This document shows, one piece after another, positions 4,916 to 17,045 of a DNA stretch of 22,822 bases. The first letter of the stretch is position 1; the number at the start of each line of letters is the position of its first letter. The position numbers and the translations under genes are program-made. The stretch lies in the IMG/VR virus record IMGVR_UViG_2645727821_000016. One strand, 5' to 3'. The stretch is from a virus (Duplodnaviria > Heunggongvirae > Uroviricota > Caudoviricetes). The notes beneath the pieces were generated by a model. That model saw only the letters and a program-made list of their open reading frames with translations, was not told the DNA's origin and made no database searches.

Positions 4916-5100
4916 TGCCAGCATCCTTTTTGTATCGGACGTAAACGGGCCAACATTGAAAGAATGCATATTTTATTTAATAGCTCCCGTTCGTGTTTTC
5001 TCTTGTTAATGGCATCTTCAGTAAATACAGGGTTACTGATAGTGACACCAATTTCAAAACAACCTTCAGACGTATTAACGTTTGGTAATAACGTTTCCAT
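4912..5100 (-). CDS. Small hypothetical early protein
   Basis: Internal ATG at 5100 with GAGGA about 8 nt upstream; a 62-aa product in the leftward early operon; stop overlaps the downstream start. Confidence 0.3.
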   Translation of the reverse strand: METLLPNVNTSEGCFEIGVTISNPVFTEDAINKRKHERELLNKICILSMLARLRPIQKGCWQ

Positions 5101-9607: not shown

Positions 9608-9639
9608 AGGTTATGCTCTGTATTTCGCTGTGGTATAAT
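9608..9639 (+). promoter_or_regulatory. Candidate promoter with extended -10 (TGgTATAAT) for the AT-rich cassette
   Basis: tggtataat at 9631-9639 is a perfect TATAAT with an upstream TG; a weak -35-like TTATGC lies 17 bp upstream. If the ATG at 9613 is the true start, this element would be intragenic. Confidence 0.35.
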
Positions 9640-10635
9640 AGTTGCGCAATTGATACAAGGGAGCGTTACATCGTGAAAATTGTTTTCGAGGTTAATGGAA
9701 AGAAAGTTCCACTAAAATCTTTAAAATACATAAGCAAAAAAGATCAACTCGAAGTAATGAAAAACTGGTTCTTTGAAAACTTTGAAGATCCGGCAAATGC
9801 TTGTCCGTATGAAAGTAGAGAAGGTGGCTATGCTTACATATATGGCGGGCCGTATGATGCGAGCGAAGAACTACAATCCATCTTCGGTCAATATGTTAAA
9901 TCTGAGTATATTGAGGAATTAGTAGATGAATTACAAACACAATGTTTTGACTGGTCTGGAAACTCAAATAATATAGATGATTGGTACGATGATGATATCT
10001 ACGACGCTGTAACGTCTTCCGGTAATCCGTATTTAAAATTCATTGATAATATCGATAAAATAAAAAAACTTGCAAAAGATAAAACTGAACAACAGCAAAA
10101 AAACCACTTGCTTAGTTTGCTCTACACGAATGTTATTACAGCTTTGGAAACGCTTTATGTTGAGCTATTCATTAATTCTATAGAGAAAGATGATGTCTAC
10201 ATAGCCAATTGTATAGAAAAAGGTAAGACTGAATTTAAAGTAAGCAAAGATATTGCTGCGTTGCCTTTCAAGGGTGAACCCATCGAGAAAATTAGGGGAG
10301 AGCTAATCAGGTCAATCAAGGAACACTTGATCAGTGCAAGCTGGCATAGCACTAAAAAGGTAATCGACCGCTATGAAGCTACATTCGATATAAAAGTACA
10401 AAAAGACTGTCCGATAGAAGCTATTGAATTGGCAACCCTCAATCGAAATCACTTAGTGCATCGTGGTGGAAAGGATAAAGAAGGGAACCTCGTAGTGATT
10501 ACAGACCAGGATCTTGAAACGCTGATTGAAAATGCATCGAACCTGGCAATTATGCTCTACAACAGTTTAAATGTAGCAACGAATAAAACCACCATTTTGC
10601 AACCAGATGACAAACCGTTCATTCATGAATTTTAA
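9613..10635 (+). CDS. AT-rich cassette gene A: hypothetical protein with no assignable function (candidate defence/abortive-infection component)
   Basis: Long ORF with strongly AT-biased codon usage, unlike its neighbours. Start is ambiguous: ATG 9613 with AGGAGG 6 nt upstream, or GTG 9673 with AAGGGAG 9 nt upstream, or the track's 9523. A single R-x4-H (RNHLVH) lies near the C-terminus. Confidence 0.7.
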   Translation: MLCISLWYNSCAIDTRERYIVKIVFEVNGKKVPLKSLKYISKKDQLEVMKNWFFENFEDPANACPYESREGGYAYIYGGPYDASEELQSIFGQYVKSEYIEELVDELQTQCFDWSGNSNNIDDWYDDDIYDAVTSSGNPYLKFIDNIDKIKKLAKDKTEQQQKNHLLSLLYTNVITALETLYVELFINSIEKDDVYIANCIEKGKTEFKVSKDIAALPFKGEPIEKIRGELIRSIKEHLISASWHSTKKVIDRYEATFDIKVQKDCPIEAIELATLNRNHLVHRGGKDKEGNLVVITDQDLETLIENASNLAIMLYNSLNVATNKTTILQPDDKPFIHEF

Positions 10636-10650
10636 TAGCGCAGGTCATAC

Positions 10651-11652
10651 ATGGATATTCGCACACGAAAGACAAAATTTTTAGAGTCGTTAGATTCAAC
10701 TGAAGTGATACGCAAAGCAGTAAGTCTCGCTATAGATTGCATTATTGATAATCATAATAGTAATGAAGATACCCCCTTAGTTATTACCAGCTATGATGAT
10801 CTCTGTAGAATCCAGGTGCTAAATTATGTACAGGAGTTTTGCGAAGCTGCATTCCCTGATATGGATGAATATTACTTTAGTCCTAACATACTTCGCATCA
10901 ACGGCAAGACTAGTGAAGAAGCTTGTATTAACTTAATTAAACTCTTAAGAAGTACAAAAGGCATGCTATTCTGGTCCGATGCCCCATCGTGGTTCGCTAG
11001 CCTCCCCGACGGATTATTCCATGTTGTTAACATTGATCAAAAAATCGTTACTCGCGGCCTTAATAAGAAAAACTCTAAGCCGACAATAATCAATAAAGAT
11101 TACAGTGTAGATACACTACTATCAGAGCTATTTTTGAATGGCGCACACATGGAGCAACCCAACGTACACAACGTTTCTGAGGGAAACATGAAGTTCTATG
11201 ATGAATGCCATGCTGGATTAATCAGACCAATACCCGCTCCAATAGGCGCGTCATACGATGAAGAGATCACAATTAATTCTCCAGATTGGCAAAAGCTCGC
11301 GTGTGTAGCTTTACGCCGCTATCAGTCGAAGGAATGTCATGACGGAATGCAATGGGATACAACCGATCATGGTTGGACTGATGTAATCGCGTATCCATTC
11401 GTCGAAGAAATACAATCAATGGATAATAGTGGTTATCGACAATGTTTAGTTGGGCTGGTCACAATAAACAATTCAAATGCAAATTCTCCGTACCTATCTA
11501 CCGTTTGGATACATCCATTTTATCGCAGGAGAGGGTTATTAAGTAAGTTATGGCCAAAATTACAAGAGTTATATGGAAGTAACTTCGAAATTGAGCGACC
11601 TAATGAAAATATGAAAGCATTTCTGAAAAGTGCGAAACACGCAGATTACTAA
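10651..11652 (+). CDS. AT-rich cassette gene B: hypothetical protein with C-terminal GNAT-like (acetyltransferase motif A-like) segment
   Basis: 333-aa ORF, 15 bp downstream of gene A, on the same strand with the same AT-rich composition. The C-terminus reads ...CLVGLVTINNSN...YLSTVWIHPFYRRRGLLSKLWPKL, resembling the GNAT beta4-alpha3 acetyl-CoA-binding loop. Confidence 0.8.
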   Translation: MDIRTRKTKFLESLDSTEVIRKAVSLAIDCIIDNHNSNEDTPLVITSYDDLCRIQVLNYVQEFCEAAFPDMDEYYFSPNILRINGKTSEEACINLIKLLRSTKGMLFWSDAPSWFASLPDGLFHVVNIDQKIVTRGLNKKNSKPTIINKDYSVDTLLSELFLNGAHMEQPNVHNVSEGNMKFYDECHAGLIRPIPAPIGASYDEEITINSPDWQKLACVALRRYQSKECHDGMQWDTTDHGWTDVIAYPFVEEIQSMDNSGYRQCLVGLVTINNSNANSPYLSTVWIHPFYRRRGLLSKLWPKLQELYGSNFEIERPNENMKAFLKSAKHADY

Positions 11653-12059
11653 TTTATGAATCAGTCTGTGGAGTTAGGGTTGGTGTCAACAAGTAGGGTA
11701 AGAGCCTCAACGTGATGCTATGCCGACCTGCTCCCTGAGAATTCACACAGAAGGCTGCTAGCAATGTCTGCAGATCGCTCAAAGCGGACTAGAAGGTTAG
11801 CTTGCGTCGGACTTGGCGTATTTAAAGAAGTGCTGGTGGTGACTGGTTGTTGTGTTCCATTTCTACAGAACAAAATCACAGAAACTATACCCAATAGTTA
11901 TATTGAATCAATGATGAGACAGCCTCATATTTATCAGAACTGGTGTACGTCCAATACAGGAGGTTGTCGTGCTGGTTCTCAAATGTGCGCTAGCTATTGC
12001 GGCTGTAATGGCAATTTATTGTCTTGCTGTTGTTCTTATGGATCGCCTTTCTGATTGAT

Positions 12060-12269: not shown

Positions 12270-12425
12270 ATGAAGCAGCAAAAGGCGATGTTAATCGCCC
12301 TGATCGTCATCTGTTTAACCGTCATAGTGACGGCACTGGTAACGAGGAAAGACCTCTGCGAGGTACGAATCCGAACCGGCCAGACGGAGGTCGCTGTCTT
12401 CACAGTTTACGAACCTGAGGAGTAA
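12270..12425 (+). CDS. hok: Hok/Gef-family type I toxin (HokD/RelF-like), 51 aa
   Basis: ATG at 12270 with AAGGAG at 12255-12260. The product MKQQKAMLIALIVICLTVIVTALVTRKDLCEVRIRTGQTEVAVFTVYEPEE has the single transmembrane helix and conserved Cys/Glu tail of Hok-family toxins. Confidence 0.85.
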   Translation: MKQQKAMLIALIVICLTVIVTALVTRKDLCEVRIRTGQTEVAVFTVYEPEE

Positions 12426-16795: not shown

Positions 16796-16871
16796 GGCCC
16801 TTTAGCTCAGTGGTGAGAGCGAGCGACTCATAATCGCCAGGTCGCTGGTTCAAATCCAGCAAGGGCCACCA
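16796..16871 (+). tRNA. tRNA-Ile (anticodon CAU, ileX/ileZ-like; tRNA-Met not formally excluded)
   Basis: 76-nt cloverleaf: acceptor GGCCCTT/AAGGGCC, D-arm GCTCAGTGGTGAGAGC, anticodon loop CTCATAA, T-loop GGTTCAAATCC, 3' ACCA. Close to E. coli tRNA-Ile2 by recall. Confidence 0.85.
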
Positions 16872-16878
16872 TCACATA

Positions 16879-16955
16879 CCGCCATTAGCTCATCAGGAAA
16901 GAGCGCCAGCCTTCGAAGCTGGTTGCGCGGAGTTCGGGTCCCCGAAGGCGGTCCA
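16879..16955 (+). tRNA. tRNA-Arg (anticodon UCG), somewhat degenerate (argN-like)
   Basis: Acceptor CCGCCAT/AAGGCGG with one mismatch; anticodon stem-loop CCAGC-CTTCGAA-GCTGG; T-loop GTTCGGGTCC with one mismatch in the T-stem; ends in CCA. Confidence 0.6.
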
Positions 16956-16968
16956 TTATCTGTATCCT

Positions 16969-17045
16969 GCGTTGTTAGCTCAGCCGGACAGAGCAATTGC
17001 CTTCTAAGCAATCGGTCACTGGTTCGAATCCAGTACAACGCGCCA
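16969..17045 (+). tRNA. tRNA-Arg (anticodon UCU, argO/argU-like)
   Basis: Acceptor GCGTTGT/ACAACGC; D-arm TAGCTCAGCCGGACAGAGC; anticodon stem-loop ATTGC-CTTCTAA-GCAAT; T-arm ACTGG-TTCGAAT-CCAGT; 3' GCCA. Confidence 0.85.

Follow-up and report, generated by a model that had tools for sequence, protein, structure and literature searches.

A divergent, C-terminally shortened GNAT acetyltransferase fold in an accessory gene of an Escherichia coli prophage

Introduction

GNAT-fold acetyltransferases have been described from mobile elements in more than one role. Toxins of the TacT/AtaT/ItaT type acetylate aminoacyl-tRNA and are neutralised by a neighbouring antitoxin, and AcrVA5-type acetyltransferases of phages inactivate a host defence protein. 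To our knowledge, acetyltransferases are rare among the characterised effectors of phage defence and counter-defence, the known cases being TacT-type toxins and AcrVA5. Here, we analyze gene B, which encodes a 333-aa protein in a 22,822-nt stretch of viral DNA (IMG/VR record IMGVR_UViG_2645727821_000016; hereafter, the window). A first-pass annotation of the window had noted a GNAT-like signature near the C terminus of gene B, placed it behind an otherwise unrecognisable N-terminal region of 230 residues, and compared the protein to TacT/AtaT toxins. We find that the last ~150 residues of gene B form a divergent, C-terminally shortened GNAT acetyltransferase fold and that the gene travels among mobile elements without a conserved partner.

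Results

A GNAT module at the C terminus of gene B

The segment singled out by the first-pass annotation, YRQCLVGLVTINNSNANSPYLSTVWIHPFYRRRGLLSKLWPKLQELYG, is present exactly in the 333-aa translation of gene B (open reading frame (ORF) 10651-11652, + strand). Profile searches support a GNAT signature beyond chance. Pfam family PF00583 matched residues 264-311 of gene B at E=9e-4 with 19.9 bits, just below the gathering threshold of 20.7. Among 42 aligned family members, 26 matched PF00583 at E<0.1, the best at 6e-6, and P0198, a relative that consists of the module by itself, exceeded the cutoff with 24.2 bits. NCBIfam gave only a weak GNAT-type match to gene B (TIGR04045, E=0.048). A profile of the module matched the RibT structure 5xxr at E=0.001, with cwiHPFyRnrGll aligned to RibT motif A (ISVNPSHRHQGIG). 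Motif A had therefore first been read in the correct register, with its last Gly replaced by Leu. The Q/R position of the motif is taken by R292, which is invariant, and the position of the first Gly by G295, which is mostly conserved.

The structural model of gene B agrees with the profile searches. The AlphaFold2 model, built from the family alignment, had a mean pLDDT of 89.6 and a pTM of 0.82, with values <50 at residues 164-168 only. Motif A lies in high-confidence structure (pLDDT >90) rather than in a disordered region. Foldseek matched the model to HAT1, MYST, ESCO1, and SSAT (E 2e-4 to 3e-3), and all matches at E<=0.001 were GNAT-superfamily acetyltransferases. The model conforms to the GNAT core fold, which is defined by a mixed sheet (beta1-beta7) with alpha1-alpha4 and splayed beta4 and beta5 strands. 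Within the module, a short beta1 (~194 and 206) is followed by alpha1 (212-229), alpha2 (239-242), beta2 (245-255), beta3 (262-273), beta4 (281-287), alpha3 (296-308), beta5 (~313), and alpha4 (319-327), after which the chain ends.

Stand-alone relatives define the limits of the module. We searched a profile of the full-length family against 1.84 billion cluster representatives and obtained 466 at E<=1e-3, ~10 of them full length. Most of the best-scoring representatives match the GNAT module alone; weaker ones may include ordinary GNATs. Dozens of stand-alone proteins of 150-180 aa align to residues 180-330 of gene B and share its end point. The module therefore comprises ~150 aa (180-333) rather than the last 100, and it starts at about residue 180-190 instead of following a 230-aa region. 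Stand-alone modules of ~160 aa occur in phages and bacteria. Examples in phage genomes follow a DUF3987 gene, belong to a set of genes inserted between those for portal and protease, or lie on a 107-kb viral contig. All-against-all BLAST of the ORFs around 12 such loci revealed no conserved partner gene.

Two further observations concern the module sequence. Several proteins of ~450-570 aa, including P0234 (568 aa) and P0242 (492 aa), end in the same WIHPFxR...AMxxFL module and contain, further towards the N terminus, a degenerate repeat of its motif (RFIWCHPFVR), suggestive of tandem-duplicated architectures in this GNAT subfamily. Separately, residues ~183-228 (window ~11197-11334; IRPIPAP...ITINSPDWQKLACVALRRYQSKE) resembled ribosomal protein bS18 in HMMER searches (E 0.19-1.3, several chains). 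This likeness is probably due to chance; an hhalign comparison with E. coli S18, using an approximate query sequence, returned a probability of 3.2%.

The conserved residues of the module mark it as a previously uncharacterised GNAT subfamily, recognizable by S-x-x-W, RRY, E, and W-I-H-P-F-x-R. In the full-length family there is no variation at S210, W213, R222, E228, W242, G268, L282, T284, W286, H288, P289, and R292, and very little at Y224, F290, and several other positions. Positions common to the full-length family and the distant stand-alone relatives are S210, W213, R223-Y224, E228, W242, G268, W286, H288, P289, F290, R292, P317, and M321. Among the stand-alone proteins H288, P289, and R292 are invariant and W286 nearly so. 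The retention of most of these residues in distant relatives fits a working cofactor-binding or active site.

Several features of gene B weigh against an active acetyltransferase and would be expected if the module were a pseudo-enzyme or scaffold that binds a ligand or partner without acyl transfer. Apart from the Pfam score under the threshold, gene B stops after alpha4, and the beta6 and beta7 strands that normally complete the GNAT sheet are absent family-wide. At the last position of motif A (L297), all family members have L, M, F, or V in place of Gly or Ala, and G295 is itself replaced in some homologs. The canonical GNAT motif places a general-acid Tyr after N-x-x-A-x-x-F, where gene B has Leu325. 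The N-terminal domain, described below, also looks like a degenerate ATPase. Against a non-catalytic module, the residues precisely at the CoA-pyrophosphate loop are kept across very distant relatives, H288, P289, and R292 without exception and W286 and F290 almost so, and the polar residues S210, E228, and Y224 likewise vary little or not at all. Many GNATs are active without the Tyr or with backbone amides alone. We therefore consider a pseudo-enzyme unlikely.

The N-terminal domain resembles AAA+/STAND cores

The region preceding the GNAT module had been called unrecognisable. This holds for its sequence, which has no detectable relatives and no hidden Markov model (HMM) match, but not for the model, in which the domain resembles AAA+/STAND alpha/beta cores and the order of elements fits that fold: alpha0 (18-37), beta1 (43-47), alpha1 (50-67), beta2 (79-80), alpha2 (88-101), beta3 (106-109), and beta4 (124-129). 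A large extra domain is fused to the GNAT module, as first proposed. Conserved residues in this domain include I28-D29-C30, N34, D110, H124, and R135-G136-x-N138. Of these, D110 coincides with the Walker B position and is almost invariant. The Walker A motif GxxxxGK[ST] is absent; beta1 leads through S47-Y-D-D50 into the helix at 50-67. Lacking a P-loop, the domain is unlikely to have ATPase activity. We read it as a P-loop-less AAA+-like domain on the strength of the predicted model, a resemblance of fold that does not imply homology.

Two other assignments for this region were rejected. The 'GKT' at residues 85-87 is not a Walker A motif, being unconserved in the family, and a match to the radical SAM structure 9cg1 (E=0.028, residues 66-164) found no support in structure searches. 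The N-terminal domain was not seen fused to another effector among the profile-search matches to this region, which were short proteins or fragments that were not individually inspected.

Gene B is a conserved accessory gene without a partner

Gene B is a genuine accessory gene of prophages and is conserved. Its homologs form 66 clusters of ~330 aa across Gammaproteobacteria, and it matches PHROG 16994 (function unknown) at E=4.5e-246. The dN/dS ratio is 0.24-0.35, including loci that lack the neighboring gene A, and 0.28-0.35 in lineages in which gene A has decayed. Approximately 70 nt on the 3' side of gene B are kept with the gene across genera, also at loci without gene A and hok. Some public database records label family members 'GNAT family N-acetyltransferase', so the fold call for gene B is not in itself new. 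We found no paper on WP_000354966, and the main text of a functional-selection study of E. coli (PMC9519451) does not mention GNAT or acetyltransferases. PADLOC-DB v2.0.0 contained no family matching gene B at E<=10. The positions of gene B, its domains, and associated features are collected in Table 1.

Table 1. Positions of gene B, its parts, and neighboring features in the window
Feature	Position	Strand	Basis or remark
Gene B coding sequence, 333 aa	10651..11652	+	ORF list and RefSeq annotation in UTI89 (WP_000354966.1, "hypothetical")
N-terminal domain, aa 1-165	10651..11145	+	alpha/beta, AAA+/STAND-like topology, no Walker A
C-terminal divergent GNAT-fold module, aa ~180-333	11188..11649	+	ends after helix alpha4, without beta6/beta7
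Strand beta4, motif A, and start of helix alpha3, Y281-W301, YLSTVWIHPFYRRRGLLSKLW	11491..11553	+	sequence, conservation, RibT alignment
Motif A, R292-R-R-G295-L-L297	11524-11541	+	read from sequence
3' flank of gene B, ~70 nt	11653..11722 (end approximate)	+	five-locus DNA alignment
Gene A, 320 aa, HEPN/RES-NTD1 + RiboL-PSP-type HEPN	9673..10635	+	RefSeq coding sequence ("hypothetical"), 15 nt upstream of gene B
Extended -10-like element, TGGTATAAT	9631..9639	+	upstream of gene A; possible cassette promoter, function inferred

Gene B homologs sit in prophages, integrative and conjugative elements (ICEs), and islands. Their neighbors include SIR2-HerA (most likely in locus L010), SIR2 with cREC, a SIR2_2 gene directly downstream, Abi_2 and AAA_14/DUF4143, HigBA-like genes, CARF/Csx1, a restriction enzyme, mad8, and genes of ICEs and CbtA/CbeA islands. 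No partner gene, of the DUF1778/RHH type or any other, was conserved in all-against-all BLAST of the ORFs at 15 diverse loci of the full-length family.

These neighborhoods bear on the likeness to toxins raised in the first-pass annotation. A type II toxin of the TacT/AtaT/ItaT kind, acetylating aminoacyl-tRNA under the control of an adjacent antitoxin, would account for the GNAT fold, for stand-alone relatives of ~160 aa, which is the size of TacT-type toxins, and for the location of gene B on a mobile element, with hokD and a HEPN gene as neighbors. Such a toxin should have a conserved neighbor, and none exists at the 15 full-length loci or the 12 small-family loci; a DUF1778/RHH gene is not present upstream. 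The Pfam and NCBIfam matches (PF00583 and TIGR04045) are weak and of a general GNAT type, with nothing TacT-type among them, and the protein is acidic (pI 5.4). Gene B also persists alone and intact after decay of its neighbor, which is unexpected for a constitutively active toxin. Since no partner gene is conserved, the toxin-antitoxin analogy is unsupported, and we regard this explanation as very improbable.

An alternative without any link to phage conflicts is that gene B encodes an ordinary small-molecule acetyltransferase, detoxifying an antibiotic, polyamine, or metabolite, and is carried as a fitness 'moron'. The best structural matches argue otherwise, because they are protein acetyltransferases (ATAT-2, ESCO1, NatD, HAT1, and MYST). 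So do the additional AAA+-like domain, the presence of the stand-alone module in phage genomes, and the recurrent SIR2, Abi, toxin-antitoxin, and ICE neighborhoods, which point to conflict systems. The canonical GNAT of phage Evi, described below, is unrelated to gene B at the profile level. On the other side, the association with defense islands is anecdotal (~5 of 14 contexts), and some homologs adjoin housekeeping genes such as polA and dsbD; both facts weigh against a role in conflict. On balance, a small-molecule enzyme appears improbable.

Gene B lies in a variable cargo site of a lambdoid prophage

The window corresponds to a lambdoid (Rac/Qin-like) prophage beside ompW of the E. coli UTI89 type, and it is identical over the 2.7 kb tested to UTI89 and ~200 other complete E. 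coli genomes. The cassette formed by genes A and B is present in ~200 of 5,426 complete E. coli genomes, including UTI89, a model uropathogen. Gene B is the second gene of an insert with 36-39% GC, compared with 48% for the whole window. The insert lies between a DUF977/LygF gene and hokD (12270-12425), which is located just downstream of the cassette. The prophage-island setting first described for gene B is thus borne out.

The slot between DUF977 and hokD is a variable cargo site. In phage Evi (L002 3139-4352) it holds an HTH-cupin regulator and a canonical PF13673/PF00583 GNAT, and in phage Tritos (L003 3320-4654) it holds a 444-aa FRG-domain protein. The Evi GNAT was considered as a relative of gene B and rejected, with an hhalign probability of 1.3% and no specific relation. 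Elsewhere in the prophage, genes for tRNA-Ile, tRNA-Arg, and tRNA-Arg occupy window ~16796-17045 (L001 17397-17646), downstream of a DNA methyltransferase gene in the UTI89 annotation.

An IS1 insertion breaks the A-B cassette in some E. coli genomes (NZ_CP012631.1). The broken cassette may correspond to the 320-aa clusters P0027 and P0028 and to loci L048 and L077, which keep residues 133-333 of gene B only. One of the PGAP features under the NZ_CP012631.1 match is named 'GNAT family N-acetyltransferase' and is possibly a truncated gene B.

Genes A and B are independently mobile

Gene A encodes an Abi-like HEPN protein. It matches PF18870 weakly, and its homologs carry PF18870 (HEPN/RES-NTD1) and PF18735 (RiboL-PSP-type HEPN). 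Its Rx4H motif spans R258-H263 (nt 10444-10461), and R258, H263, and R264 are invariant in the family. A PADLOC-DB v2.0.0 search with gene A returned noise only. Anantharaman et al. (2013, PMC3710099) liken HEPN proteins with such N-terminal fusions to Abi proteins in their architecture, and on our own reading of that study these HEPN proteins work as single-protein modules.

The start of gene A was assigned to GTG 9673, which has a GGGAG ribosome-binding site and is kept in three genera. The upstream ATG 9613 was rejected: it has a near-perfect AAGGAGG Shine-Dalgarno sequence, yet the ATG is absent from the Aeromonas cassette. Many database entries of gene A use ATG 9613 (340 aa). The extended -10-like element upstream of gene A (TGnTAYAAT) is kept in the cassettes of E. 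coli, Serratia grimesii, and Aeromonas caviae, and its flanks diverge. A consensus promoter scan missed it because it has no -35 element.

Could the two genes form one functional pair, in which B neutralizes or regulates the HEPN RNase A by acetylation, analogous to MNT proteins that AMPylate HEPN toxins? They lie on the same strand, share the promoter-like element, and are kept as a unit with the same spacing in E. coli, Serratia, and Aeromonas and in three element types (a prophage, a CP4-57-like island, and a relaxase-bearing, mobilisable element). Remnants of gene A also adjoin intact copies of gene B. In Citrobacter, gene A is reduced to codons 257-320 directly upstream of B (L027-L029 4791-4982). 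In Rahnella (L008 5923-5982) and two viral contigs (L072 and L073, ~4923-4982) the last 16-20 codons precede a full-length B; these matches are weak (E 0.02-0.07) but exactly adjoin B upstream. Gene A has therefore been lost repeatedly and B kept, and this one-sided decay within the clade is suggestive, since a toxin gene with its antidote gene behind it would be expected to decay in this way.

The wider distribution of both families speaks against such a pair. Homologs of gene A with 56-74% identity occur alone, without B, at the margins of prophages and islands in Dickeya, E. coli, and Aeromonas, and B homologs at <=62% identity all lack gene A. The B family and the stand-alone module are spread far more widely than the pairing, which is limited to one clade and is thus not obligate, and the Abi-like architecture of gene A also argues for independent action. 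We conclude that genes A and B are independently mobile single-gene modules and that B does not depend on A. Regulation of the HEPN RNase by B is accordingly a rather improbable explanation.

Discussion

Taken together, our results lead us to favor, with moderate confidence, the explanation that the product of gene B is a two-domain acyltransferase that uses acyl-CoA, belongs to an uncharacterised GNAT subfamily, and is encoded by a solitary accessory gene acting in conflicts between mobile elements and their hosts. In the proposed mechanism, the W-x-H-P-F-x-R loop, which is invariant, would hold the CoA pyrophosphate, and the protein would catalyze acyl-CoA-dependent (probably acetyl-CoA-dependent) N-acylation of a macromolecular target. 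Residues 1-165 may serve as a target-recognition, regulatory, or oligomerisation module. We infer the target and setting from two lines of evidence: protein acetyltransferases (ATAT, ESCO1, NatD, HAT1, and MYST) provide the best structural matches, and the genomic company of the family makes a macromolecular target in a conflict among mobile elements, phages, and hosts most likely, whether in defense or counter-defense. In the window, a low-GC cassette that apparently has its own promoter contains gene B as its second gene, after a gene for an Abi-like HEPN RNase. Calling gene B an 'unusual effector', as the first-pass annotation did, is a reasonable but tentative reading.

A more specific scenario is tentative. 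Gene B may be a novel type of single-protein conflict effector in which the P-loop-less AAA+/STAND-like domain acts as a sensor and, on infection, controls a shortened GNAT module that acetylates an essential host or phage macromolecule, or it may work with the HEPN RNase A as a two-gene cassette. The stand-alone 'WIHPFxR' modules of phages would then represent a new family of acetyltransferases for host takeover or counter-defense.

Defining this module, with its own motif set, without the C-terminal strands, and present in phages, prophages, ICEs, and defense-type islands, would add a new enzymatic activity to the conflict toolbox. Gene B offers a cleanly testable case, as an uncharacterised gene in the prophage of a model uropathogen. 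If gene B proves to be a generic acetyltransferase 'moron', the value of this work will lie only in an improved annotation of PHROG 16994 and WP_000354966.1. What is new here is the corrected domain map, the AAA+-like N-terminal domain, the wider 'WIHPFxR' stand-alone family in phages, and the facultative cassette with an Abi-like HEPN gene.

Comparison with known systems

We compared gene B to the systems that it most resembles. The TacT, AtaT, ItaT, and KacT toxins share with it the GNAT fold, carriage on mobile elements, and, in its stand-alone relatives, a similar size (~160 aa). Gene B differs in having two domains and 333 aa, in its acidic character, and in lacking a DUF1778/RHH antitoxin and any specific sequence similarity to these toxins. 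AcrVA5-type GNATs are likened to the family by description: they are small, solitary GNAT-fold genes of phages and mobile elements, as are the stand-alone relatives, and gene B has an extra domain.

The Abi-like modules that combine HEPN/RES-NTD1 with HEPN, such as gene A, resemble gene B in pairing an orphan N-terminal domain with an enzymatic C-terminal domain and in occurring as solitary mobile genes. They differ in that the effector of gene B has a GNAT fold and is not a nuclease; gene B also has no PADLOC-DB v2 match. The AAA+/STAND cores (NB-ARC of plant NLRs and Apaf-1, ORC1/Cdc6, Lon, and HslU) resemble gene B in the fold of the N-terminal domain only. Identity in this domain is 5-12%, there is no lid domain, and Y-D-D occupies the Walker A position. 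Thus, gene B is not a TacT/AtaT-type toxin, not an AAA+ ATPase, given the absent Walker A motif, and not any PADLOC-listed system.

The GNAT superfamily itself (PF00583, clan CL0257) provides the closest comparison. The nearest member by sequence profile is Bacillus subtilis RibT (PDB 5xxr), and the nearest structures are alpha-tubulin acetyltransferase ATAT-2 (8y9f), SSAT2 (2bei), ESCO1 (4mxe), and NatD (4ua3). The beta2-beta3-beta4-alpha3-beta5-alpha4 core of gene B superposes on GNAT structures at 2.2-2.8 A over 105-131 residues, and gene B shares the beta4-loop-alpha3 motif A, h-x-h-x-P-x-x-R-x-x-G. Identity to these proteins is just 10-19%, and the gene B family has its own invariant set of S210, W213, RRY, E228, W286, and H288. 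In addition, gene B ends motif A in Leu, lacks beta6 and beta7, and is fused to a 165-aa AAA+-like domain. We therefore place gene B within the GNAT superfamily, as a divergent and shortened form that carries a novel accessory domain.

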